Positions 4,118 to 17,527 of a DNA stretch of 64,000 nt are shown one piece after another. A program made the position numbers and the translations under genes. Each line of letters opens with the position of its first letter. The first letter of the stretch is position 1. This DNA comes from a bacterium (GTDB lineage: Bacteria > Krumholzibacteriota > Krumholzibacteriia > LZORAL124-64-63), in NCBI GenBank assembly GCA_018814885.1, contig JAHIYU010000177.1:40025-104024 (forward strand), written 5' to 3'. The notes beneath the pieces are model-generated. The model worked only from the letters and a program-made list of their open reading frames with translations. It had not been told where the DNA came from and searched no databases.

Positions 4118-4897
4118 TCAGCGCAGCAAACGAGCCGGATCGACGGCCTCGTTGTCCCGGCGCAGCTCGATGTGCAGATAGGGCTGGTTCCCCTCCGCCG
4201 GCGCGCCGGTCAGGCCCAGGCCGTCGCCGCGCAGCACGATCCGGCCGGTCTCGACGTAGACGTCATCGGAGGAGAAGGGTCCGAGTACCGTGGCGAATCC
4301 TCCCCCGTGCTCGATGATCATCAGCCGGCCGTAGCCGTCCTGCTCGCCCACGTAGCGGACGACGCCGTGGGCGGGAGCGACCACGTGTGCGCCCCGAGCA
4401 TAGGCCATGTCCACCCCGGTGTGGCGGGTGGTGATCCGGCCCTGGCGCTGGTCGCCGAAGGAACGCAGCTCGGCGCCCGCGGTCCCGGCGAAGGGGCGGC
4501 GCCAGCGGGTGCCGGCGGCGCGCGTGAGTCCGAACGGGCGGGTCACGCGCAGCCTCTGCGCCGGGTGGATGAGATCGCTCCTGAGGCCGTTGTCCCGCTT
4601 GAGTGCGGAAACGGTGGTGCCCGTCAGCTCGGCGATGCGGCCCAGGTAGTCGCCCGGGCGCACCACGTACCAGCCGTCCTCGGAGGCGGCGAGAACCGGC
4701 GCACCGGCCATGGCCAGCACGAGCGTGATCAGCGAGGCGGCGAGAAATACGACGCGGTCATTCGCGAATCCTGGCAGACCGCGAATGCGTTTGCCCGACG
4801 GTGATCCAGGACGGTTGTCGATCATGGTGATCATGGCGTCACTATTCCCGTTCGCGGCTGATGCGAGCTCGGAGATGGCTTCTTGCGAGCCAGGCAC
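4118..4897 (-). CDS. LysM domain / M23 family metallopeptidase (NlpD-like)
   Basis: N-terminal signal-anchor, LysM motif (YVVRPGDYLGRIAELTGTTVSALKRDNGL) and M23 core (HTGVDMAYARGAHVVAPAHGVV...GRLMIIEHGGGFATV). Start codon uncertain. Confidence 0.8.
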   Translation of the reverse strand: MPGSQEAISELASAANGNSDAMITMIDNRPGSPSGKRIRGLPGFANDRVVFLAASLITLVLAMAGAPVLAASEDGWYVVRPGDYLGRIAELTGTTVSALKRDNGLRSDLIHPAQRLRVTRPFGLTRAAGTRWRRPFAGTAGAELRSFGDQRQGRITTRHTGVDMAYARGAHVVAPAHGVVRYVGEQDGYGRLMIIEHGGGFATVLGPFSSDDVYVETGRIVLRGDGLGLTGAPAEGNQPYLHIELRRDNEAVDPARLLR

Positions 4898-5161: not shown

Positions 5162-5239
<78 letters not shown>

Positions 5240-5283: not shown

Positions 5284-5793
5284 CTACACGTTGGACCAGA
5301 GGTGCAAGACCCCCATCGAAACGAGCGTCACCAGGATTCCGGCGACGCAGATGCCAAGGATGATACACGGGATCGAAAAACGCAAGGGCAGCCTGAAGAG
5401 GTAGGCGGCCACCGAGCCGGTCCAGGCGCCGGTCATGGGCAGAGGGATGGCTACGAACAGGATCAGGCCGATGGCCTGGTAGCGGCGTATGAGTCCGCTG
5501 CGGCGTTCGGTGCGCGCGAAGAGCCAGGTGAAGAAGCGGTCGGCGCGGGCGAAGCGGCGCAGACGGCGCTCGGCCGGGCCCAGCAGGGTCAGGATCGGCA
5601 GCACCGGCACGAAGTTGCCCGCCGCCGCGATCAGGAACGTGAGCACCGGATGCGCGCTGCCGAAGCTGGCGGCCAGGGGCGTATAGGCGTAGGGGATGGC
5701 GCCGCGCAGCTCGAAGATCGGCAGCGTGGCGATCGCGAAGATCGCCAACGGCGGCGGCAGGTGCTCGGCCCATTCGAGTATCTGTTCACGCAT
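5284..5793 (-). CDS. Small polytopic membrane protein (small multidrug export-like, PF06695-type)
   Basis: 169 aa with 4 TM helices and an ELRGAIPYA motif near the N-terminus. Overlaps the pcm stop by 8 nt. Confidence 0.5.
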   Translation of the reverse strand: MREQILEWAEHLPPPLAIFAIATLPIFELRGAIPYAYTPLAASFGSAHPVLTFLIAAAGNFVPVLPILTLLGPAERRLRRFARADRFFTWLFARTERRSGLIRRYQAIGLILFVAIPLPMTGAWTGSVAAYLFRLPLRFSIPCIILGICVAGILVTLVSMGVLHLWSNV

Positions 5794-6457
5794 CGGCTGC
5801 GCTCCCCGTCAAACCCGACAGCATCGGCACGAACCGGCAGGGAACCGAACGTTCGACCCGCGCCTCTCCCCCGTGCTTGCGGTAGCGGTATAGGGTCTGC
5901 TCCTCGCCCGCGCCGATGGGCAGGACCAGCGTGCCGCCTTCGCGCAGCTGGTGGAAAAGCAGGGACGGCAGGCGGGCCGGACAGGCCGTGACGACGACCG
6001 CGTCGTAGGGACCGCGTTCGGGCACCCCGTCGCCGCCGTCGGCGGCGTAGATCTCCACGTTGTCGTAGCCCAGCTCGTCGAGCCTGCGCGCCGAACGCAG
6101 CGCCAGGGGTTCGATGCGCTCCACGCTCACCACCGAGCGGCACAGGTGCGAGAGCACGGCCGCCTGGTAGCCCGATCCCGTGCCGACCTCCAGCACGTGC
6201 GCGTCGCCGCGCAGTTCCAGCAGGGCGGTCATCAGGCCCACGATGAAGGGCTGGCTGATGGTCTGACCGTAGCCGATGGGCAGGGCGCAGCCGTGATAGG
6301 CGCGGTGGCGCAGCAGGGTGGGCACGAACAGGTGGCGCGGCACCTTGTACATGGCCGCCAGCACCTGCGGGTCGGCGACGCCTGCGCCTGCGAGCTGGTC
6401 GGAGACCATGCGTCGGCGGGCCACGGCGTAGTCGGTCGCTGCGGCGCGGCTCCTCAT
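5786..6457 (-). CDS. pcm: Protein-L-isoaspartate O-methyltransferase
   Basis: GYGQTISQPFIVGLM and VLEVGTGSGYQAAVL SAM motifs. 4-nt overlap with surE. Confidence 0.9.
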   Translation of the reverse strand: MRSRAAATDYAVARRRMVSDQLAGAGVADPQVLAAMYKVPRHLFVPTLLRHRAYHGCALPIGYGQTISQPFIVGLMTALLELRGDAHVLEVGTGSGYQAAVLSHLCRSVVSVERIEPLALRSARRLDELGYDNVEIYAADGGDGVPERGPYDAVVVTACPARLPSLLFHQLREGGTLVLPIGAGEEQTLYRYRKHGGEARVERSVPCRFVPMLSGLTGSAADA

Positions 6458-7227
6458 GGTTTCAACGGTCCCTCGTGGTTGAGCCCGGACAGCCGGGCGA
6501 GCATGATCTCGTGGGTCAGGTCCACGCGCAGGGGCGTGACGACCACGTAGCCCGCCTGGCTGAGGGTGGCGTCCGTGTCGGGCACTTCATCCCAGGTGGG
6601 GCCGTTGCCGCCGATCCACAGGTACGGCTTGCCGCGGGGATCGAGCTGCTCGGTGATGACGTCGCTGTATTGCCGGCTGCCCAGGGGGGCGACGCGCACG
6701 CCGCGGATCTCGTCCGCCGGCAGGTCGGGTATGTTGACGTTGAGCAGGGTGTTGCGGGGCAGCTCCTGGTCGAGCAGCGCGTCGAGGTGGCCGCGCAGAT
6801 AAGCCTCCACGGTATCCCAGTGTTCGGGCCGCCAGCTGGTGCAGGAGACGGCGTAGCTGGGCAGGCCCAGGATGGCTCCCTCCAGCGCCGCCGCCACGGT
6901 GCCGGAATAGGTGACGTCCTCCCCCATGTTCGAGCCGTGGTTGACGCCGCTGATCACCGCGTCGGGGGGGTCGTCCTTGAGGATGTGCTCCACGCCCACC
7001 AGCACGCTGTCGGTCGGCGTGCCGGTGACGGCGAAACGGCCGTCGCCGTAGTCGATCACACGCAACGGGACGCGCAGGGTGAGGCTGTGACTCGAGGCGC
7101 TCTGCTGGTCGGCCGGCGCCACGGTGGTCACCCGGATGTCGTCGCGTTCGGACAGCACCCGGGCCAGCAGGTTCAGGCCGTGGGCGTCGATGCCGTCGTC
7201 GTTGCTCAGCAGGATGTGCCGGATCAT
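6454..7227 (-). CDS. surE: 5'/3'-nucleotidase SurE
   Basis: N-terminal MIRHILLSNDDGIDAHGL signature. surE-pcm adjacency. Confidence 0.9.
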   Translation of the reverse strand: MIRHILLSNDDGIDAHGLNLLARVLSERDDIRVTTVAPADQQSASSHSLTLRVPLRVIDYGDGRFAVTGTPTDSVLVGVEHILKDDPPDAVISGVNHGSNMGEDVTYSGTVAAALEGAILGLPSYAVSCTSWRPEHWDTVEAYLRGHLDALLDQELPRNTLLNVNIPDLPADEIRGVRVAPLGSRQYSDVITEQLDPRGKPYLWIGGNGPTWDEVPDTDATLSQAGYVVVTPLRVDLTHEIMLARLSGLNHEGPLKP

Positions 7228-7913
7228 CGTCGATCTCCTCGTCTGGCCTCGCGGCGCAGGCGGTAAACGAGCCTGAAGAAGCGCACCGTGTCGCGCAGGG
7301 GCCTGATGGAGCTGCCCTGTTCGCCGTACACCGCCGCCGTCGGCACAGAGCCGATGCGGGCGCCGCGCCGCGCCAGTCGGACCAGCACCTCCGACTCGAA
7401 GTCGTAGTTGGCGGTGGTCGTCTCCAGGCCGTCCAGGACAGCTACGCGCAGCAGGCGGTAGCCGTTCTGCGAGTCCGGGATGGGACAGCCCGCCAGGCGG
7501 CTCACGACCCGGCTGGTGAAAACATTGGTTGCCTTGCGGATCCAGGGCATGTCCGCGGTCGCGTCCATGCGCGTCCCGACGACGATATCAAAGCTAGCAG
7601 ATAACGCGGCGTCCAGGAAGGACTGCATCTCAGCCGGCAGGTGCTGGCCGTCGGCGTCCATGGTGAAGGTCCAGTCCCAGCCCGCGGCCAGGGCGTGCTG
7701 GAAACCGGTCAGCAGGGCCGCACCCTTGCCGCGGTTCTGCGCGTGGGTGGCGATTTCGGCACCGTGGGCGCGGGCGACGTCGCCGGTGCCGTCGGTGCTG
7801 CCGTCGTCCACGACCAGCGCACGGATATCGGGCTGACGCTCGCGGATCTCGTCCAGCAGCGGCCCCACAAACGAGGCCGCGTTCAGGGCCGGGAGGATGA
7901 CGCCGACGTGCAT
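7224..7913 (-). CDS. Family 2 glycosyltransferase (polyprenyl-phosphate sugar transferase-like)
   Basis: VGVILPALNAASF...LVVDDGSTDGTGDVA...DADGQH GT-A/DxD motifs. Start taken at internal ATG (MHVGVIL). Overlaps the surE start by 4 nt. Confidence 0.8.
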   Translation of the reverse strand: MHVGVILPALNAASFVGPLLDEIRERQPDIRALVVDDGSTDGTGDVARAHGAEIATHAQNRGKGAALLTGFQHALAAGWDWTFTMDADGQHLPAEMQSFLDAALSASFDIVVGTRMDATADMPWIRKATNVFTSRVVSRLAGCPIPDSQNGYRLLRVAVLDGLETTTANYDFESEVLVRLARRGARIGSVPTAAVYGEQGSSIRPLRDTVRFFRLVYRLRREARRGDRR

Positions 7914-8039
7914 GGTGGGAGCACTCCGATAATCAATGATCACCCTACAAAGGGGCTGGTACTGGCGAGAAACCGACTGGAAGTCACAGTTCGAAGCATA
8001 GGCGCGAACGAGACCAGATCCAGATTCATCAATAGCCTG

Positions 8040-8492
8040 CTAGTCCCCGATCAGTTGGCGCACCCGACCCATGAAGGCTTCCGGATCGATCGGCTTGTCG
8101 ACGAACATCTCCGGCTTGACCAGCCCCTCCTCGCGCATGGCCGCGATCATATGGCGCAACGATTCGCGCAGGCAGTCAAATGGCCGCTCCTCGGTGTTGG
8201 CGGCGGCGGAGTCTAACTCTTCAAGGGAGGCGGCGACACCGGTCAGCATAAGCACCGGAATGTCCTTCAGTTTCTCGTCCCTTTTCAGCTGTTTGAAGAG
8301 GGTGAAGCCGGTCTTTTTTGGCATCATCACATCCAGGACGATCAGGTCGACTGCGTTCTCCTGGATTATTTGCCAGCCCTCACTGCCGTCATTGGCGGTC
8401 AGGGTCTCGATCCCCCCCTCCTCTAGCACCACCGAGAGGAACTTCACGGCGTTCACATCATCGTCGATGATCAGAACCTTCTTGTCGCTCAT
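8040..8492 (-). CDS. Response regulator, receiver domain only (CheY-like)
   Basis: KVLIIDDD...LIVLDVMMPKKTGF...PVLMLTG. 150 aa, no output domain. ATGA overlap with the upstream kinase. Confidence 0.85.
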   Translation of the reverse strand: MSDKKVLIIDDDVNAVKFLSVVLEEGGIETLTANDGSEGWQIIQENAVDLIVLDVMMPKKTGFTLFKQLKRDEKLKDIPVLMLTGVAASLEELDSAAANTEERPFDCLRESLRHMIAAMREEGLVKPEMFVDKPIDPEAFMGRVRQLIGD

Positions 8493-10393
8493 GTTCCACT
8501 CCTCGAATTGGGATGGGATAACGGCAGGATAACCCTGAAGAGGGCGCCCCTGTCCGGTTTGGACAAAATGATGATTTCACCGGCGTGTAACCGGATGATC
8601 CGGCTGGTGAGGGCAAGGCCGAGGCCGGTGCCCCACTTCTTCTTGGTGCTGAAGAATGGAGTGAGCACGTTCTTACGGACCTCCTCGGTCATCCCCACAC
8701 CGTTGTCCTGGATCTCGACCAGGACTTGACAACCCTGGCCGCAGGCTGTGCGGCAGACTATTTCCGGTGTTTCCCCCTCTTTGTACTCCTTCATGTCACA
8801 GGCGTCCAGTGCGTTCGTCAACAGGTCCATGAAAGTCATGTGGATGAGGCCGGGATCGCAGTGGATCGTCGGCAGGTCAGGGTCCAATTCGACCCGCAGC
8901 GCCACACCATTCTCGGCAGCCACCTGGCGAATGGCCCCGGCGGTTTCGTTGACCATGGCGTTCAGGTCGGTCGGCTCCGTTTCGATCTGCCAGTTCCGTG
9001 CGTACTTCAACATCTTCCGGGAGAGGTCGCTGATCCTCTGGAAGCCGTCTTCGATCATCTCGCACCCCTCGCGGATACGATCCCGCCGGTCCCTCTTCAG
9101 CCCGACCTGGACGATGTACAGCCCTCCCCGCAACGTGTTGAGCATGTTCTTGATCGCATGCTGGATGGCGGTGACGGCGCGCCCTATAGCGACGGCCTGT
9201 TCCGACTCGAACAGCTGCTGTTGCAGTTCCCTCTCGGTGGTGACGTCCTTGCTGATGCCGAGGGTGCCGATGGCCCGCCCCTCCTGGTCCCGCAATCGCG
9301 AGAGGGTCAACAGCACGTGGCGCTCAGCGCCGTCGCTTGTCTTGAACCGGGTCTCGATGTTGGCCACGTAGCCCTGCCCGGCCAACCGGCTGATGGCCTT
9401 GGCCCGTTCCTGTGGATCGGCGAAGAGGGTCTCCATCGGCAAGCCGATGACCTCGTCACGCCTGAATCCGAGCGCCTGCTCGGCCCCTCGGTTGAAGGTC
9501 TCGATTTGCCCGGCTGGGTTAACGGTGATGATCAGATCGGCGGAGTTCTCGACGATGCCCTCGAGGTATTTGAGGGTGCGACGCAGCTCGGTCTGATGGG
9601 CCTGCAGCTTGGTGGCCATCGAGTTGAAGGATTCCTGCACCAAGCCGATCTCGTCGTCTCGTCGCGAGTCGAACCGGTAATCGAGGTGGCCGGCCCCGAG
9701 AGCGCCGATGCCGTCGACCAGGCTCCGCAACGGCGCGACCAGCAGTCGGCGGAAGGCGATCAGCAGGCCGCCGATTCCCAACACCATGCCCAGTACGGCG
9801 GCCAGGGCCAGGAGTCCGTTCAGCTCCGCGATCTGGCGGTCGATGTCGGCAAGGGAGTACTCGGTGTGCAGAAAACCGAGCAGCGGACCTGAGTTCAGGT
9901 GGGCATGGCAGCCCGCGGTTCGACACCCGGGCTCGTTCAGGATCGGCGTGACCACCTGCAATACCCGGCCGCCGTCCACTCCAGGCAAGATCTGCTGGTG
10001 CTGGTCCAGGCTGGCGGTTGGCAGAGAATCGTCGGCGTGACACTGGGCGCAGGTCCGATCCTCGCGTGCCATTATGGTGCCGGGTTCCATCAGACGGGAG
10101 ACGGCCACCAGTCCATCCGGGTGAGACACGAGGCAGATCTCGCAATAGGTAGGACTCCAGCCGGCGATATCCTCGATGTATTCGCGGACCCCGCTGTTGT
10201 TGCGGCTCATCATCATCTCTTGGATGCCGCTGCGAATCGAGGTGGAGTTGAACTGCAGGACGTCGTAAGCCACTTCGTTGGCCGCCCGACGGCCGATGTA
10301 GCTGCCGAGAAAGCCAGTACCGAGTAGGATGACGAGAACCGCAATGACCACCACCGCGCTCATCCGCCAGGCCAGCTTGCTGCGTCGTTTCAT
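8489..10393 (-). CDS. Sensor histidine kinase with periplasmic c-type-haem-motif domain, HAMP, PAS, HisKA and HATPase_c
   Basis: Two TM helices flank an ~160-aa periplasmic domain carrying CAQCH and CRTAGCH. PAS domain (ENSADLIITVNPAGQIETFN), phospho-acceptor H box and ATPase G boxes (DNGVGM, GTGLGL). ATG at 10393 overlaps the SDR stop (ATGA). Confidence 0.85.
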   Translation of the reverse strand: MKRRSKLAWRMSAVVVIAVLVILLGTGFLGSYIGRRAANEVAYDVLQFNSTSIRSGIQEMMMSRNNSGVREYIEDIAGWSPTYCEICLVSHPDGLVAVSRLMEPGTIMAREDRTCAQCHADDSLPTASLDQHQQILPGVDGGRVLQVVTPILNEPGCRTAGCHAHLNSGPLLGFLHTEYSLADIDRQIAELNGLLALAAVLGMVLGIGGLLIAFRRLLVAPLRSLVDGIGALGAGHLDYRFDSRRDDEIGLVQESFNSMATKLQAHQTELRRTLKYLEGIVENSADLIITVNPAGQIETFNRGAEQALGFRRDEVIGLPMETLFADPQERAKAISRLAGQGYVANIETRFKTSDGAERHVLLTLSRLRDQEGRAIGTLGISKDVTTERELQQQLFESEQAVAIGRAVTAIQHAIKNMLNTLRGGLYIVQVGLKRDRRDRIREGCEMIEDGFQRISDLSRKMLKYARNWQIETEPTDLNAMVNETAGAIRQVAAENGVALRVELDPDLPTIHCDPGLIHMTFMDLLTNALDACDMKEYKEGETPEIVCRTACGQGCQVLVEIQDNGVGMTEEVRKNVLTPFFSTKKKWGTGLGLALTSRIIRLHAGEIIILSKPDRGALFRVILPLSHPNSRSGT

Positions 10394-12120
10394 GTTGCCG
10401 AGCTCGCCTTCCGGGGCAGGGGCCCGCAACGATTCTCGATCTGGCGGAGCAGGTTCTCGAAGATAACCCCGTGGAAAGGCAAGAGCACTAGCCAGTATAA
10501 CCGGCCGAAGAGCGACCGGGTGTCGAAGTAAGCAACGATGACCACGCGGCGCTCTTTCCCTACACGCCGCACGAGGAACTCGAGCCAGGCCCGGCCGGGC
10601 AATTTCATCTCCGACCGCAACAGGAGGCGGCGCCCCGGCCGCAGGTCCTCCACCCGCCAGAAATCGATGACGTCGTTGATCTGCAGGCTGCGCCGCGCCC
10701 GCCGGCCACGGGCCGTGCCGACCCCGAAGAACACGCGATCAATCATTCCCCTCAATCTCCACATCCAGTTGTTGTGGAACCAACCCTCCTGGCCGCCGAC
10801 CTGGCAGAAGGATTGGAACAGGTCGGCGGGCGATTGCTGCGTGGGCAATGAATACACTGCCCTGTAGCGCGGCCGCGGCGTTACCTCGTACAGCTTGAGC
10901 GCGAGCTCGTGCGCCGGCGGGTAGGCATCGGACCAGCGGGTGGCGACGTTGTCCTGCTCCTCGCGGCTGAATGCGAGCAGCAGCGCCTCGCGGTACCCGA
11001 GCGGGCAGAATTCGAGATGCTGCCGTATGTGGTCGTTCTCGCAAACGGTGTCGCTCTTCAATCCGTCCATCAGGCAGAACACGATCGGCCCGGGCACCGG
11101 GGTGATCAGGCTGAGGAAGTACGAATGCAACCGCAACGCGGACAGGGGGCTGCGAATGAACGAGCGCCGCACCCGCAGGAGATCGGCCAGGTTCCGCACC
11201 ATTTGCTCGTACGTGAGGATATCCCGCCCGCCGATGTCGAACGACCGACCGGCCGTTTCCGGTTTTTCGAGCACGCCGACCAGGTATTTGACCACGTCCC
11301 GGATACCGATCGGCTGGCACAGCCGATTCGACCACCGGGGAAACAGGATGATCGGCAGGTTCTGTACCAGGTGCTTGAGGATCTCGAAGGAGGCGCTGCC
11401 CGAGCCGATGATGATGGAGGCCCGCAGGATCGTCACCGGTACACGACCCTGCTGAAGGGCGCAGGCCACCGCCTGCCGGCTACGCAGATGTTCCGAGGGG
11501 GCGGTCTCGGCACAACCGACACCGCCGAGGTAGATGATGCGCTGGACGCCGGCTTTTTCGGCCGCCTGGCGGATGTTCACGGCCGCCTCCAGATCGGCTG
11601 CAGCGAAACGCGCCTGCCCCATCACCATCGAGTGGATCAGGTAGTAGAGGGTATGCACCCCTTGCAGTGCCGGCCCGAGTGTTCCCGGGCACATCGCATC
11701 GGCCGCCACGATCTCGGCCCGGGGCCACCGTTCCGCGAACCGCATGGCGTCGGCCCGGACCATGGCACGCACGCAATAGCCACGGGCGAGCAGTTCGGGG
11801 ACCAGCCGGCCCCCGATGTACCCGGAGGCGCCGGTGACGGCCACGAGCCCGTCGTCAGGCCGGGGTGTAGTGTCGAGATCGTGGCAGAAGAGTGGGTCGG
11901 GACAACCGGGACAGGCAGGCGATCCGGCCAGTTCGGGATCCCGCAGGATCCCAGCCTGTCCCCAGTTGGGAAGCCGGTCGGAGCTGAAACCCCTGTCCAG
12001 TCGGTGGGTGAAGTTCCGGATCTCCGTGCGGACGGCGGCCATGCCGGCCCCGGACTGGAGGCTGGCTTCCCCTGCGGCCAGTCCCGCCGTGGAGACGGCC
12101 TTGTCCGACGAATCCACCAT
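10390..12120 (-). CDS. NAD(P)-binding SDR-family protein fused to C-terminal DUF2867 domain
   Basis: Rossmann motif VAVTGASGYIGGRLV. C-terminal GWFHNNWMWRLRGMIDRVFFGVG...DFWRVE pattern of DUF2867. Preferred ATG at 12120 is preceded by GGAGCAGA. The ORF can extend to 12180. Confidence 0.7.
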   Translation of the reverse strand: MVDSSDKAVSTAGLAAGEASLQSGAGMAAVRTEIRNFTHRLDRGFSSDRLPNWGQAGILRDPELAGSPACPGCPDPLFCHDLDTTPRPDDGLVAVTGASGYIGGRLVPELLARGYCVRAMVRADAMRFAERWPRAEIVAADAMCPGTLGPALQGVHTLYYLIHSMVMGQARFAAADLEAAVNIRQAAEKAGVQRIIYLGGVGCAETAPSEHLRSRQAVACALQQGRVPVTILRASIIIGSGSASFEILKHLVQNLPIILFPRWSNRLCQPIGIRDVVKYLVGVLEKPETAGRSFDIGGRDILTYEQMVRNLADLLRVRRSFIRSPLSALRLHSYFLSLITPVPGPIVFCLMDGLKSDTVCENDHIRQHLEFCPLGYREALLLAFSREEQDNVATRWSDAYPPAHELALKLYEVTPRPRYRAVYSLPTQQSPADLFQSFCQVGGQEGWFHNNWMWRLRGMIDRVFFGVGTARGRRARRSLQINDVIDFWRVEDLRPGRRLLLRSEMKLPGRAWLEFLVRRVGKERRVVIVAYFDTRSLFGRLYWLVLLPFHGVIFENLLRQIENRCGPLPRKASSAT

Positions 12121-12180
12121 TCTGCTCCATTCACGGAATCTAGGCGAGGGAAGGTCAATCGAAGCGGGGTAAATCACCAC

Positions 12181-12491
12181 CGTCCAGGAATGGTTCCCCG
12201 CATCCGGATTATAGACCCATATATCCCACTGAACTAGTATATAATCTTAGCAACCGCCCATTCCTCGCCCTGTTGCCGGTCGGCGATAGATATCCGGCGA
12301 TGTGGGCATTCGTCGGTCACCCGGCGACCGGGCGGGCAATAGGAGGTTGATATTTCCAATAGCGGGCCTACGGTCTGGTCGGGCATCAGGTGCGCGAGCT
12401 TTCGAACGTATCTTTCCCGGCAGGATGGCATGTGGCAGTATAGAATGGACGGGGTTCTGAGGGTCAGGCATTTGATATCGGTTGATTTCAA
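12181..12491. promoter_or_regulatory. AT-rich divergent control region
   Basis: GC content drops sharply. A perfect TATAAT (plus-strand ATTATA near 12208-12213) lies upstream of the minus-strand SDR-HK-RR operon. A GGAAGGAG Shine-Dalgarno near 12525 lies in front of the plus-strand membrane-protein genes. Confidence 0.45.
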
Positions 12492-14984
12492 TTGTTACTC
12501 GATCGCGAGTATGATTGGCTCTATGGAAGGAGCGTAAGTACTAACGCCGCTTGCAAAGGTATTGCGTACCAAGTGACGAGGGGGGCTGCCATCAAATTCA
12601 TCACCTATTTCCTGATCCTGCTGGCGCTGGGACTCGGCGAACGTAGCCTAGGGCCCCACGGCACGCGACTGACCACGCTGCTGGCCCTCTGTGCTGTGCT
12701 TCCGCTCCTGTTGCGCGGTCTCTGGCTGATCGACTGGCGCATGTGGCGGGCCTCGCTCCCCGGTCTCGCCGCGATCGCGACTGCCGTCTGCTGGTACACG
12801 ACCGCGGACGCCGCGCAGTACTTCGCCCTGGGGGCGTCGCTGGCCTGCCTGTCTATCGCGGTGCGGCGCACCGTCCCCCGGGACGTCCTGGCCGACGCCT
12901 CACCGGCATCTACGGTCATCGCCTTCGCCCTTTTCGTGGCCGTCCGGGACCATCTCGACCTCTGGACCCAGCTGATCACTGCCTCCATACGGACAACGTT
13001 CTGGTTCTCGAATCTATGGGGGCAGTCGTTGCGTCTGGGGCCGACCTATTCCGGCCTCTGGCTGTTGGTCGCCTGCCTGCTGGCGCTGGTGATGATCGCC
13101 ACCGGAACGCGCCACCGGCCCTGGCGGCTGATCGCCGCCTTCGTGCTGCTGCCGCTGCTGGCCTTGGCCGCCATCCCCTTGCGCGGCCTGGTGCCGACCC
13201 ACTATCACGGCGCGCCGGCGACCGCCGTCCTCGCCTGGCGCCTGGTCCAGTTCATCCTGCTGCTGGCGCCGGTAGCTCTGCTGACCGCGACCCGCGGCCG
13301 GGACGAAGTGTTGGCGGCACAAGCCCCGCCGCACGCCGCCCCTTGGCGCGGGATCGCCACGGTTGCGTGTGCGGCCGCGGCTCTGGGCGGTCTCGTGCTG
13401 TTGAGCTGGAGCCGGCCCGTTCCTTGGCATCCCGGGCGGGTCTTGATCGACACCCGCGGGTCGTTCAACATGGAACCCTTCCGCTGGGGCGCCTACGCCC
13501 GCGATGTAGCCCAGGGCGCTTCTCTGGCCACGCTGCCACATGTGCTGGGCGCGTACGGTTTCGCGACGGCGGCATCTGACACCATGATCGACGCTGCCGC
13601 GCTGGCCGAGACAGACGTCCTGGTGGTCATGAATCCCGACACCTTCTACACCGAAGCCGAGCACGCGGCCGTCTGGGAGTTCGTCGACCGCGGAGGCGGC
13701 CTGCTGGTCCTGGGTGATCACACCAATATCATGGGTGTGATGGAGCCCTTCAACGCCCTGCTGCAGCCGGTGGGCATCGGACTGAATTTCGATTCAGTCA
13801 TTCCCAGGGTCGACCGCTGGTCTTGGTACGGCTGCATGCGTTTCCACCCCCATCCGCTGACACGGGGCCTGCGCGACGAGGCCGAGATCAAGCTCAGCGT
13901 GGGCGCCAGCCTGACGCTGGCAGCCGGGGCGATTACCTTGTTGAGCGGACGGGACGCCTACGCCGACGCCGGCAACTGGGACAACGCGCAGGGTGCCTAC
14001 CTGGGCAACATGGCCTTCGACCGGTCCGAGATCGAGGGTGATCTGCTCCTGGCTGCCGAGGCGCCCTACGGCCGGGGAAAGGTGATCGCCTTCGGGGATA
14101 CCTCGCCCTTCCAGCGCACCACCGTCAGCCTGTCGCACGAGCTGATGGCCAGGATCTTCAACTATCTCGGCACGCCCGGCGGCGCAGTGGCCGGGCGGCA
14201 GGTGCGCGGCGCCGGCGCGATACTGCTGGTCGTCGCCGGGACTCTGCTGCTGGCGCTCGGCAGGCGCCGCCCCATGGCGCCGGCGGTGTTCGCCATCCTG
14301 GCCTCGATCTGGCTGCTGGCGCTGGCAGGGCACGCGACATTCGCCCTGCCGCCGGCGCCGGTCGGCGAGAACGTGGCGTGGCTGGACCTGTCCCACGGCA
14401 ATCGTGTGGACCTGCATGCCGGCCGGGATGACGGTCTCGGCGGTCTGCAGAACCATCTGTGGCGCCACGGCTACGTGCCGCTGGCGATGCGCGCGTTCGA
14501 CCGCGACCGGCTGCTGGCCTCGGAGCTCTTCGTCACGGTGGCGCCGGCCTTCCCCTATTCTCGGCACGAGTGCGCCGCCCTGCGCGCCTTCGTCGAGAAC
14601 GGGGGCCTGCTGATCGTGTCCGCCGGCTACGAGGAGCGCAACGGTGCCGCGGACCTGCTGGCTGAATTCGGCTATGCTGTCGGTTCCACGCCCCTGGGCT
14701 CGGCGCACGTCGCCGAGACGCTGCTCACGGGACAGCGTGTCTACATGCACGAATCCTGGCCGGTGCTCCAGCCGGCCGGCCAGGGCGAGATCTGGGTCCG
14801 GTGCTGGGGGTACCCCATCGTGGTCTTCGAGACGTTCGGGGCGGGCGGTCTGCTGGTGATCGCCGATTCGATGTTCCTCAGCGAGAAGAGGCTGGAGAGC
14901 CCCGACGAATTCGTCGAGGAGAATATCGATTTCCTCCGCGCGGCGATCGAGACCGCACGGCAGCGGATGGGAGGTGAAAAGTGA
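12492..14984 (+). CDS. Large polytopic membrane protein, paralogue A (N-terminal multi-TM domain plus two repeated extracytoplasmic domains)
   Basis: 830 aa. Hydrophobic N-terminal ~300 aa, then two ~200-aa domains each with VLVV..P....E..AV..FV..GGGLLVLGDH-type motifs, separated by a TM hairpin. Clear paralogue of the next gene. Confidence 0.6.
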   Translation: MLLDREYDWLYGRSVSTNAACKGIAYQVTRGAAIKFITYFLILLALGLGERSLGPHGTRLTTLLALCAVLPLLLRGLWLIDWRMWRASLPGLAAIATAVCWYTTADAAQYFALGASLACLSIAVRRTVPRDVLADASPASTVIAFALFVAVRDHLDLWTQLITASIRTTFWFSNLWGQSLRLGPTYSGLWLLVACLLALVMIATGTRHRPWRLIAAFVLLPLLALAAIPLRGLVPTHYHGAPATAVLAWRLVQFILLLAPVALLTATRGRDEVLAAQAPPHAAPWRGIATVACAAAALGGLVLLSWSRPVPWHPGRVLIDTRGSFNMEPFRWGAYARDVAQGASLATLPHVLGAYGFATAASDTMIDAAALAETDVLVVMNPDTFYTEAEHAAVWEFVDRGGGLLVLGDHTNIMGVMEPFNALLQPVGIGLNFDSVIPRVDRWSWYGCMRFHPHPLTRGLRDEAEIKLSVGASLTLAAGAITLLSGRDAYADAGNWDNAQGAYLGNMAFDRSEIEGDLLLAAEAPYGRGKVIAFGDTSPFQRTTVSLSHELMARIFNYLGTPGGAVAGRQVRGAGAILLVVAGTLLLALGRRRPMAPAVFAILASIWLLALAGHATFALPPAPVGENVAWLDLSHGNRVDLHAGRDDGLGGLQNHLWRHGYVPLAMRAFDRDRLLASELFVTVAPAFPYSRHECAALRAFVENGGLLIVSAGYEERNGAADLLAEFGYAVGSTPLGSAHVAETLLTGQRVYMHESWPVLQPAGQGEIWVRCWGYPIVVFETFGAGGLLVIADSMFLSEKRLESPDEFVEENIDFLRAAIETARQRMGGEK

Positions 14985-17527
14985 TGCGCCGTTTCTGGCT
15001 CGCCCTCTGGCTGGCCGTTCTGGCTTGGGACGGTTTCTCCCCGCATATCGAATCCGCGGCGGCTCCCCCGCTGGCCTGGGCGGCCCTGATCGCCTGCGGC
15101 CTGCTGTTGATCTCGCGCCGGCGCGGCGACCAGCCCCTCTTCACCCGGTGGCCGTCCGTGGTGTGCGCGCTCGCCGCGTGCGGCGCCGGCTGCCTGCTGC
15201 CCTGGCCAGAAAGGGTGGGACCGCTGCTGGTCGCCGGTGGGCTGATACTCGGGCTGGTCCCCGTGCTGAACCGGTTGACCCGGGGCAACAACTGGCGGAT
15301 ACCGTCGGCCGCCGGCGGCCTGTTGTGGCTCAGCGCCGGCGTGTCACACGCTTACCGGGTATGGGAGGCGTCGTATCACGACCTGGACTTCATGGCCGGA
15401 CCGCTGGCTGCGTTTTACCGTCTGTTAGGCCTGCCGGCGGCCGCTGATCCGCCGCTGGTGCATCTGCAGGTGGTCGGCAACCTGCAGACGATCGATTGCA
15501 CCCTCGAGAAGCTGGTGGGCCATCCCCTGCCGGTGATCGTTGTGGCCGGCCTGGTCGCGATCTTCCTGCTGAACGGCCGGCGCGCCGGTTGGCGCCTGCC
15601 GTTGCTGCTGCTGTTGCTGGCGGCCGTCTACGCCTTCTTCAGGTCGGCGGCCCTGGGCCTGGCTCTCGAGCAGATGAACGAGGCCGGCATCTACTACCGG
15701 CGCATCTGGGTCTTTGGCAGCCTGCTGCCGCTGATCCTGTTGCTGACGTGGGTTGTGCCGCCGCTGCGGCATGAACGGGGCGCCGACCTTGCACCGGCAG
15801 GGCGCGTGTCGGTCGCCGCCACCGGACGCGGATGGACGGATCCGCTGCTGGCGGTCCTGCTGGGTGTCGGCCTGGCCGGTGCCCTCGGCTTCTACGATCC
15901 TGGCGATCCCAAGCCCGGCCGTGTGATGATCGACGAGAACCATTCCAACTGGGAGTGGTCGACCGTCGCGTTGAACACCGAGAGCTACGGCGTGCAGACC
16001 GTCTACAACTACTCCGAACTGGTGCGCTACCTGCGCCACTTTTACGCGGTGGACCAGAACTTCGCGGTGCTCGGCGACAGCCTGCTCGCGGCTGTGGACG
16101 TGTTGATTCTCAAGACGCCGACCAAACCCTATGCGGACGCGGAAGTGGACGCCGTCGTGCGCTTCGTCGAGCGGGGCGGCGGCCTCTGGCTGGTGGGCGA
16201 TCACACCAACGTCTTCGGCATGAGCACGAACCTGAACAGGGTGGGCCGGCATTTCGGCATGACCTACAACTACGACGCGGTCATAGACCTGCTGACCTAC
16301 GGTCGGCAGTACTACCGGCACCCGCGTCTGTTCGCCCACCCCTCGCTGCGCCACCTGCCGCCACTCTTGCTGGCCACTTCCTCCAGCATGGTCGGCCCGC
16401 TGCTCAGCCAGCCGGTCATGATCGGCCGTACCCTGCTCTCGGACCAGCTTGACTACTCCGTCAACGCGTTCTTCGGGGATTTCCGGCCGAGCGCCGGCGA
16501 ATCCTTCGGCGCGATGCTGCAATCCGTGGCCGTGCCCCGCGGCCGCGGTCGCGTGCTGGGCTTCAGCGACAGCACCATCTTCTCGAACTTCTTCATGTTC
16601 ATCCGCGGCAAGCCGGAGCTGGCCCTGGGCAGCGTGGCCTGGCTGATGTCGACCAACCGGTTCGGCTGGGTGCGTCACGCCCTGCTGGCGATGGCGGGGA
16701 TCGGCGCGCTGCTGCTTCTGGTGCGGTTGCCGCGACAGCACGGCGCGGCGCCCTTCGTCCTGCAGATGATCCTGGCCACTCTCTTCTTTGCCCTGACCGC
16801 GCGGGCGCTCGATCGCTGGACCGCGGCATGGTCCACGCTGCCGCGGCCGCACACTCCCCTGCCCACGGTGGCCTTCGACCGCGGCAAGACCGACTACGAC
16901 ATCCCGGACATCCGGGAGGTCGCCGATGAATCGCCCGCCAGCTTCCACACCTTCTACGTGTGGACCCAGCGTACGGGCTGGATCCCGACCACCGGGCTCT
17001 TCGAGGACTGCCTGGCCGCTGCGCGGGCGACCGTGCTGATCAGGCCCAGCGGCCACTACCATGCCACCGAACTGGCGGAACTGGAGGACCACGTGAGGCA
17101 GGGTGGCGGTCTGCTGGTGCTGGACTCGCCGCACAGCCGCCACTCGGCGGCGCAGTCGATCCTGCAGGCGTTCGGCATGGGCTTCAGCCCCGCGGAGATG
17201 GAGAGCGTCACGGTCAGCCCCGCCGCCGGCGGCCTCGAGACGACCGAACTGCACCACGTGCGCGGCGTGACCGGCGGCCGGCCGGTCCTGGTCGCGTCCG
17301 ACGGCACCGCCGTGCTCGCGTACACGGACTTCGGCCGCGGCAGGGTAGTGGCGATGTGCGCCGCGGACAACTTCACCGACGCGGTGATGGGTACCACCTC
17401 GGCCGTCCCCACGCCGGAGCAGCTGGCGCTCTATCGGATCGAGTACCTTATCTTCGAGGAACTGCTGGATACCGCTGGGGCCTGGCCCGCCCGCGACGGG
17501 GAACCGCCGGCAGGAGGTGGCGGCTAG
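14981..17527 (+). CDS. Large polytopic membrane protein, paralogue B (same architecture as 12492-14984)
   Basis: 848 aa, GTG/ATG start overlapping the upstream stop (GTGATG). Motifs VDVLILKTP...AEVDAVVRFVERGGGLWLVGDHTN and ATVLIRPSGHYHATELAELEDHVRQGGGLLVLDSP. Confidence 0.6.
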   Translation: MMRRFWLALWLAVLAWDGFSPHIESAAAPPLAWAALIACGLLLISRRRGDQPLFTRWPSVVCALAACGAGCLLPWPERVGPLLVAGGLILGLVPVLNRLTRGNNWRIPSAAGGLLWLSAGVSHAYRVWEASYHDLDFMAGPLAAFYRLLGLPAAADPPLVHLQVVGNLQTIDCTLEKLVGHPLPVIVVAGLVAIFLLNGRRAGWRLPLLLLLLAAVYAFFRSAALGLALEQMNEAGIYYRRIWVFGSLLPLILLLTWVVPPLRHERGADLAPAGRVSVAATGRGWTDPLLAVLLGVGLAGALGFYDPGDPKPGRVMIDENHSNWEWSTVALNTESYGVQTVYNYSELVRYLRHFYAVDQNFAVLGDSLLAAVDVLILKTPTKPYADAEVDAVVRFVERGGGLWLVGDHTNVFGMSTNLNRVGRHFGMTYNYDAVIDLLTYGRQYYRHPRLFAHPSLRHLPPLLLATSSSMVGPLLSQPVMIGRTLLSDQLDYSVNAFFGDFRPSAGESFGAMLQSVAVPRGRGRVLGFSDSTIFSNFFMFIRGKPELALGSVAWLMSTNRFGWVRHALLAMAGIGALLLLVRLPRQHGAAPFVLQMILATLFFALTARALDRWTAAWSTLPRPHTPLPTVAFDRGKTDYDIPDIREVADESPASFHTFYVWTQRTGWIPTTGLFEDCLAAARATVLIRPSGHYHATELAELEDHVRQGGGLLVLDSPHSRHSAAQSILQAFGMGFSPAEMESVTVSPAAGGLETTELHHVRGVTGGRPVLVASDGTAVLAYTDFGRGRVVAMCAADNFTDAVMGTTSAVPTPEQLALYRIEYLIFEELLDTAGAWPARDGEPPAGGGG

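Follow-up and report, generated by a model that had tools for sequence, protein, structure and literature searches.

Within a 64,000-nucleotide (nt) window of a Krumholzibacteriota genome (contig JAHIYU010000177.1; "the window" denotes this whole analyzed stretch), a co-directional row of minus-strand genes runs from position 12180 to a tRNA-Pro gene that ends at 5162. The row opens with a gene for a YbjT-like short-chain dehydrogenase/reductase (SDR) fused to DUF2867 (10390..12180 as the longest open reading frame, ORF). Genes follow for a 634-residue transmembrane histidine kinase (8489..10393), a 150-residue receiver-only response regulator (8040..8492), a family 2 glycosyltransferase (GT2; ORF 7224..7943, with a likely ATG at 7913 that gives 229 residues), SurE (6454–7227), Pcm (5786–6457), and a small membrane protein of the Sm_multidrug_ex family (5284–5793) whose gene overlaps pcm. 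The initial annotation had read the first four genes as a coupled module in which the kinase senses the product or redox state of the SDR. Its gene calls stand: all seven ORFs and the domain labels were recovered with Pfam (NAD_binding_10 plus DUF2867; HAMP–PAS–HATPase_c; Response_reg; Glycos_transf_2; SurE; PCMT), as was the order GT2, surE, pcm downstream of the regulator. We estimate at roughly three in four the probability that the region is instead a species-specific juxtaposition of three units rather than one functional module. The units would be a YbjT-family SDR–DUF2867 oxidoreductase, a widely conserved two-gene signaling cassette of kinase and receiver, and a GT2–surE–pcm housekeeping row.

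Comparison of gene order across genomes carries this reading. On the kinase side, 80 genome loci from species representatives were searched with the window proteins, and two metagenome loci raised the set used for ORF clustering to 82. The regulator gene lies directly downstream of the kinase gene in 70 of these 82 loci, with the contig ending first in at least some of the others, and the encoded regulators are 51–70% identical to that of the window. Kinase–regulator loci span Latescibacterota, Planctomycetota, Gemmatimonadota, Acidobacteriota, Zixibacteria, and other phyla. No match to the SDR, GT2, SurE, or Pcm was found in any of the 80 kinase-relative loci. On the SDR side, 83 loci encode the closest relatives (54–65% identical), and 63 of them extend at least 700 nt downstream; an orthologous kinase follows in 0 of the 63. 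Kinase or receiver matches in the SDR-side loci are scattered and generic (22–32% identity), and several are on the opposite strand. The pairing of SDR–DUF2867 with the kinase, whose conservation had been chosen beforehand as the test of coupling, is thus absent in related genomes. The arrangement seen in the window was found only on contigs from four samples whose proteins are 100% identical to those of the window.

The nearest relatives of the cassette come from three sister lineages, in which the kinases are 75–76% and the regulators 83–84% identical to those of the window. Upstream of the kinase, all three encode a fusion of Fer4/CCG domains to a receiver (REC) domain, a PAS kinase, and two receivers; no SDR is present. 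The fusion is a 609–613-residue protein that joins an HdrD-like Fer4/CCG module to the receiver (L085:3374-5215 and L175:2638-4467), and it sits upstream of the PAS kinase, the two single-domain receivers, and the two-heme kinase described below. When the sister-lineage REC and PAS-kinase genes were compared with the window, they matched only the window kinase and regulator, at 27–30% identity. As an observation in its own right, a redox enzyme module that bears its own phospho-acceptor domain is unusual.

The junctions between the genes were read directly from the sequence. ATGA start/stop overlaps join the SDR to the kinase gene (10390–10393) and the kinase to the regulator gene (8489–8492), where AGGAG sits 6 nt upstream of the regulator ATG that overlaps the kinase TGA. 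Further overlaps of this kind occur at GT2/surE (7224–7227) and surE/pcm (6454–6457). Three consecutive overlaps had been ascribed to the SDR, kinase, and regulator genes; two exist, and the overlaps of the row form two runs of two, split at the gap between regulator and GT2. There, the regulator gene ends in TAG, and the GT2 gene begins either 96 nt further on at a GTG or 126 nt further on at ATG 7913, which is preceded by GGAG. The intervening minus-strand spacer (7914..8039 for the ATG start) is noncoding, contains no terminator, and folds no better than shuffled sequences (z = 0.31). We regard the overlaps as ordinary packing because about 13 of 41 same-strand junctions in the window (~30%) share a 4-nt NTGA overlap, an approximate count that is based on longest-ORF starts of 45 ORFs with coding-type GC content at third codon positions (GC3).

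Base composition varies along the row. At 58.1% GC (z = −2.8 against a window mean of 67.4%), the regulator gene ranks last among 44 window genes, and the kinase gene ranks fifth from the bottom (62.2%). The SDR gene, at 65.9%, and the three genes GT2, surE, and pcm, at 69–71%, all fall within ~1.2 standard deviations of the mean. The low GC of the regulator and kinase genes is weakly consistent with the cassette forming a unit of its own. The GT2 gene lies outside the conserved kinase–regulator unit, because the gap separates it and no GT2 gene occurs beside the kinase in the 80 loci.

The GT2 itself had been called a polyprenyl-phosphate-type enzyme. The generic Glycos_transf_2 model passes; no curated equivalog is reached, the best NCBIfam matches being PpgS (97 bits, cut-off 370) and AglJ (84.5 bits, cut-off 325). 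Its resemblance to DPM1, PpgS, and AglJ may be taken as a lead, not an assignment. Downstream, the row recalls surE–pcm–nlpD of Escherichia coli: surE and pcm are adjacent and overlapping in both, and a LysM/Peptidase_M23 gene resembling nlpD (4118–4897, minus strand) lies beyond them. The window differs in that a coupled GT2 gene precedes surE and that the small membrane protein gene and tRNA-Pro(CGG) (5162–5239, minus strand) intervene before the nlpD-like gene.

Upstream of the SDR gene, the hexamer TATAAT occurs on the minus strand at 12208..12213 as a candidate −10 element, and a second copy on the plus strand (12240..12245) faces the divergent gene at 12492. A perfect TATAAT promoter had been proposed for the row; the hexamer is present (minus strand, 12213..12208) but has no convincing −35 element. 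The promoter scan found no −35 partner for the minus-strand copy at 16–18-nt spacing. At 17 nt, the hexamer is TAGTTC, which matches 2/6 positions, and inspection revealed no extended −10, although the sigma-70 consensus may not be that of this host. Two TATAAT hexamers in 64 kb compare with 0.96 expected, a count reached in 26/100 shuffles. Both copies, which are on opposite strands, fall inside the divergent intergenic region of 311 nt (12181–12491), and this paired placement is suggestive of a promoter region without proving one. A riboswitch or leader RNA was considered for the long 5′ region and for the spacer and was ruled out, as Rfam returned no match in E-value mode across 7800–12600 and only four tRNAs at the gathering threshold across the window.

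Among the alternatives, the one that fares best, while still unlikely, holds that the seven genes from SDR to Sm_multidrug_ex constitute one stress or envelope operon transcribed from the TATAAT region, in which the two-component pair regulates itself and controls surE, pcm, and GT2. The shared direction of all seven genes fits this view, as do the unstructured spacer, the minus-strand scan, which detected nothing like a terminator between genes of the row, and the location of the only two TATAAT hexamers of the 64 kb in the intergenic region upstream. However, a receiver-only regulator cannot bind DNA itself, and GT2, surE, and pcm are never beside the kinase pair in 80 other loci. Rows of the surE–pcm–nlpD type are housekeeping clusters in other bacteria, as exemplified by the stationary-phase row of E. 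coli. The 96–126-nt gap also leaves room for an internal promoter, and the GC contents of the regulator (58%) and kinase (62%) genes differ from those of GT2, surE, and pcm. We therefore favor three juxtaposed units, within which the SDR, kinase, and regulator genes may well be cotranscribed in this species as a matter of packing rather than of shared function.

The first of these units matches a large and recognizable protein family. The SDR ORF exceeds the Pfam cut-offs for NAD_binding_10 (57.7 bits) and DUF2867 (107.9 bits) and contains the NAD(P)-binding Rossmann motif TGASGYIGG. More than 7,500 homologs were retrieved, with a typical length of ~496 residues; the best is 65% identical, and alignments span 82% of the longest ORF. 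Identity to these homologs, thousands of which are ~496 residues long, is 54–65%, and several carry the Joint Genome Institute (JGI) label 'YbjT (DUF2867 family)'. With the YbjT-type SDR–DUF2867 proteins of E. coli, the window protein has in common the NAD(P)-binding Rossmann domain (TGxxGxxG) and the C-terminal DUF2867; it differs in an N-terminal extension of ~40–65 residues with CPGC and a C-terminal tail of ~11 residues. A literature search on DUF2867 returned nothing informative on its function. No NCBIfam equivalog was reached by the SDR, kinase, regulator, or GT2, for which HpnA, AtoS, DVU0259-type, and PpgS models were the best matches, all far under cut-off. One SDR homolog (P0001, 828 residues) has two copies of the SDR module ahead of one DUF2867, a tandem-fusion form.

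Both ends of the SDR required closer reading. In-frame GC3 is 0.55 over codons 1–20 of the ORF and 0.85 from ATG 12120; at its noncoding level over those first codons, it led us to reject GTG 12180 as the start. The deposited assembly GCA_018822565.1 begins the protein at ATG 12042, which gives 550 residues, and the start is likely ATG 12120 or ATG 12042. An extension of ~100 residues with a CPGCP...C..H motif had been described, yet the extension is ~40–65 residues, and the C..H part belongs to LFCHDL, a conserved N-terminal motif of the family that directly precedes the Rossmann strand. The CPGC(P) part of the segment CPGCPDPLFCH (11881..11913, minus strand; compared with homolog N termini P0002–P0033) is an extra, lineage-specific feature that none of the homologs inspected shares. 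Its absence from every one of them led us to discard the idea of a metal or redox knuckle. At the other end, the SDR runs ~11 residues past most relatives. The overlap with the kinase gene arises because this nonconserved tail reads into the kinase start codon, and the kinase N terminus is family-typical despite the overlap.

These results bear on the proposal that SDR, kinase, and regulator act as a module, with the kinase sensing the product or redox state of the SDR and translational coupling fixing their stoichiometry. We consider this very improbable. The ATGA overlaps at both junctions, the recurrence of the SDR–kinase arrangement in four independent samples of the species, and a heme-bearing sensor that is at least compatible with redox sensing speak in its favor. 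Yet the pairing is missing from the 80 kinase-side loci, the 63 SDR-side loci, and the three sister lineages, and overlaps like that between SDR and kinase, which here stems from a nonconserved tail, recur at ~30% of window junctions. Direct sensing of a product would also be awkward, given a periplasmic sensor and an SDR that has no evident N-terminal signal peptide by eye and is probably cytoplasmic. The claim of functional coupling is accordingly not sustained.

The second unit, the cassette, is where the conserved features concentrate. The kinase (identical to MBU1073170.1) is laid out as transmembrane segment, periplasmic sensor, transmembrane segment, HAMP, PAS, DHp with His412, and HATPase_c (64 bits); the Pfam HisKA model found no match in it. 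By inspection, hydrophobic stretches at residues ~14–35 and 192–214, the latter followed by HAMP from 214, place membrane segments on either side of the sensor (residues 36–192; 9818..10288, minus strand). Across 28 aligned full-length relatives (48–76% identity), H91, C115-x2-C118-H119, and C157-x4-C162-H163, all between the two hydrophobic stretches, are invariant (28/28), and H165 is nearly so. H412, in the 'AIQHAIKNMLN' segment of the dimerization helix, is likewise invariant in the 28. The first cysteine motif, CAQCH (C115–H119; 10037..10051, minus strand), is an additional candidate site for c-type heme and is predicted to occupy a short helix between strands 2 and 3. The second, CRTAGCH (C157–H163; 9905..9925, minus strand), is a Cx4CH motif at the position of the heme site of GSU0582 and GSU0935, before the last β-strand.

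Profile and structure searches converge on the same relatives. A profile of the sensor segment searched against the PDB retrieved only 3B47 and 3B42, the Geobacter heme c sensors (E ≈ 0.009), and in the alignment Cx4CH pairs with their CQSCH (CxxCH) site, as does the N-terminal 'ELMM' helix with its counterpart. The AlphaFold2 model of the sensor (predicted local distance difference test score, pLDDT, 82) has a Cache/PAS-like fold, and its top Foldseek match is 3b42_B (GSU0935; E = 1.4e-5), ahead of KinD, PscC, and other Cache/PDC domains. These matches and the invariant motifs uphold the earlier label of a heme-sensor kinase. Geobacter domains of the GSU0582/GSU0935 type bind one c-type heme and have been proposed as redox sensors (PMC8396549). 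A 2026 preprint unites them with DUF3365/Tll0287 as 'sCache_haem', in which CXXCH is 99% conserved (PMC12889525). Known domains of this type are fused to HAMP and signaling outputs, and redox potential or gases have been suggested as their signals (PMC8396549, PMC12889525).

Measured against GSU0582/GSU0935 (PDB 3B47, 3B42) and DcrA of Desulfovibrio vulgaris, the window kinase has the same periplasmic Cache/PAS-like fold between two membrane segments. It further shares with them an N-terminal helix of the 'ELMM' type and a Cys…Cys-His motif that lies in a loop or helix ahead of the last β-strand. It departs from sCache_haem proteins in having Cx4CH, with two extra residues, in place of CXXCH at the canonical site and in bearing a second invariant motif, CxxCH, in an extra helix, so that two hemes are predicted rather than one. 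Moreover, the solved GSU0582 and GSU0935 are chemoreceptors, whereas the output in the window protein is a histidine kinase. We regard the kinase, from its sequence and model, as an outlying relative of the sCache_haem sensors with a predicted two-heme form. Its sensor most likely carries two covalent c-type hemes, at CxxCH and Cx4CH. A literature search found no paper describing a two-heme Cache kinase. The least probable of the alternatives, that the cysteines bind no heme and form disulfides or hold a metal in a thiol or metal sensor kinase, draws on the noncanonical Cx4CH and on the failure of either Pfam heme-sensor model to reach threshold, but is countered by the invariant His after each Cys pair, by the alignment of Cx4CH with the heme site of two solved heme c sensors, by the binding of heme at Cx4CH in cytochromes c3, and by the position of the domain between two hydrophobic segments, where c-type heme attachment occurs.

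The partner of the kinase is more conserved than the kinase itself. Response_reg is the sole Pfam match in the 150-residue regulator, which has no output domain, in keeping with its description as receiver-only, and D10, D11, D54, T84, and K133 are invariant in the family. That family comprises 913 or more clusters at 90% identity. The 120 clusters listed among them range from 144 to 160 residues, with nearly all at 148–151, and, with the window protein itself set aside, they are 63–84% identical to it. All members share a ~30-residue insert between β4 and β5, within residues ~87–128 (8109..8234, minus strand), through which 66 orthologs from the fetched loci align collinearly without gaps. 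In the AlphaFold2 model, a short α4 leads into a loop, and an additional long helix (104–122) then precedes β5. Receivers in the PDB align to only the first ~105–120 residues, and none of the top Foldseek matches (RR468, the RpaA receiver, DivK, and CheY) has the extra helix. The regulator thus resembles CheY, DivK, and RR468 of Thermotoga maritima in being a single REC domain with all phospho-acceptor residues, encoded beside a kinase, and differs from them in the conserved insert and long extra helix of its family.

Single-domain receivers commonly work by direct protein binding. The absence of an output domain had been taken to imply a phosphorelay partner encoded elsewhere; such a partner is possible but not implied, since receivers of this kind can bind proteins directly. 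In the model, the conserved insert adjoins the α4–β5–α5 surface that such receivers commonly use for binding, and it may contribute to an interaction there.

When all ORFs of the 82 loci were clustered, a row of six genes emerged that recurs beside the kinase–regulator pair in other genomes, either co-directional and upstream or divergent. Its products are a pair of HdrA-like flavoproteins, of which the second bears an MvhD/VhuD-like tail; QmoC (396 bits in NCBIfam against a cut-off of 300); a membrane-anchored DsrJ-like cytochrome of ~150 residues (64 bits, cut-off 100) with exactly three CXXCH motifs in 36/36 members; DsrO with a twin-arginine translocation (Tat) signal (270 bits, cut-off 200); and an NrfD/DsrP-like membrane protein that scores under its cut-off. 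At least three of five row protein families occur in 33 of the 58 loci with ≥3 kb of upstream flank. One example is L087:549-7966, and ~33 other loci include L007, L009–L011, L023, L032, L041, L045, and L071. The row is present in Latescibacterota, Gemmatimonadota, Acidobacteriota, Zixibacteria, and Planctomycetota. It resembles QmoABC/DsrMKJOP of sulfate reducers in that QmoC and DsrO exceed NCBIfam equivalog thresholds and are accompanied by HdrA-like, triheme DsrJ-like, and NrfD/DsrP-like proteins. It differs in that Qmo and JOP parts are joined in one row in the kinase-relative loci. No apr, sat, dsrMK, or dsrAB gene is listed beside the row in L087, the sole locus for which the gene table is complete, the remaining loci not having been screened for them. 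A literature search on QmoABC together with DsrJOP returned papers on sulfate reducers.

Because the cassette adjoins this QmoABC/DsrJOP-like gene cluster for transmembrane electron transfer in other phyla, the signal perceived by the kinase is likely the periplasmic or quinone-pool redox state. In the mechanism that we propose, the periplasmic Cache/PAS-like domain would carry c-type hemes at CxxCH and Cx4CH, and a change in their redox or ligation state would be relayed by HAMP and the PAS domain in the cytoplasm to control autophosphorylation at His412. Asp54 of the adjacent 150-residue receiver would accept the phosphoryl group, and the receiver would then bind another protein, perhaps with the help of the extra helix near α4–β5–α5. 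In this species, the cassette would have ended up between an unrelated SDR gene upstream and GT2–surE–pcm downstream. A bolder extension, which we offer tentatively and consider possible rather than probable, is that the two-heme kinase and the insert-bearing receiver are devoted to the sensing and regulation of a transmembrane electron-transfer complex of QmoABC–DsrJOP type that has yet to be described. The periplasmic hemes would read redox state by electron exchange with the triheme DsrJ-like cytochrome, and the phosphorylated receiver would adjust electron flow by acting directly on a protein and not on DNA; the window copy would be displaced and would still control a redox module elsewhere in the genome.

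Several points weigh against reading the region as three separate units with a heme-based redox sensor in the second. The lineage is poorly sampled, the nearest SDR relative being 65% and the nearest kinase relative 76% identical, and unsampled close relatives could share the SDR–kinase junction. The scan having detected no terminator between them, all seven genes may lie on a single transcript that starts in the TATAAT region. Amino-acid composition accounts in part for the low GC of the regulator gene. For the sensor, the kinase family has no PF11845 match at E ≤ 0.01 and scores 17.8 bits against PF21563, whose cut-off is 27, and heme attachment at Cx4CH in a Cache-like fold stands as a prediction. 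Finally, no Qmo/DsrJOP-like protein is encoded in the 64-kb window. Separately, we considered horizontal transfer of the cassette and set it aside, low GC being weak evidence for it and partly explained by composition.

If the region is indeed a juxtaposition, the coupling of enzyme and kinase reflects how genes happen to be ordered at one place in a compact genome, and it opens no new question. The kinase–regulator pair, on the other hand, defines a large uncharacterized family, mostly from uncultivated phyla, with ~500 kinase and >900 regulator clusters in the collection searched. Its kinases would extend the recently defined heme c Cache sensors to a predicted two-heme form with a Cx4CH site. 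The recurrent Qmo/DsrJOP-like neighborhood offers a testable lead on how electron transfer from periplasm to cytoplasm is sensed and regulated outside classical sulfate reducers.

The surroundings of the row are of a more general character. Further neighbors are housekeeping genes encoding LptE, the DNA polymerase III delta subunit, PlsY, and Der. At the start of the window, 21-767 on the plus strand encodes a sigma-54-dependent activator with an AAA+ lid and a Fis-type helix-turn-helix, the N-terminal part of which, possibly a receiver, is cut by the window edge. Divergent from the SDR gene, two plus-strand genes (12492-14984 and 14981-17527) that share a GTGA overlap encode membrane proteins of ~840 residues with DUF4350/GIFT/ABC_transp_aux (GldG-like) domains.

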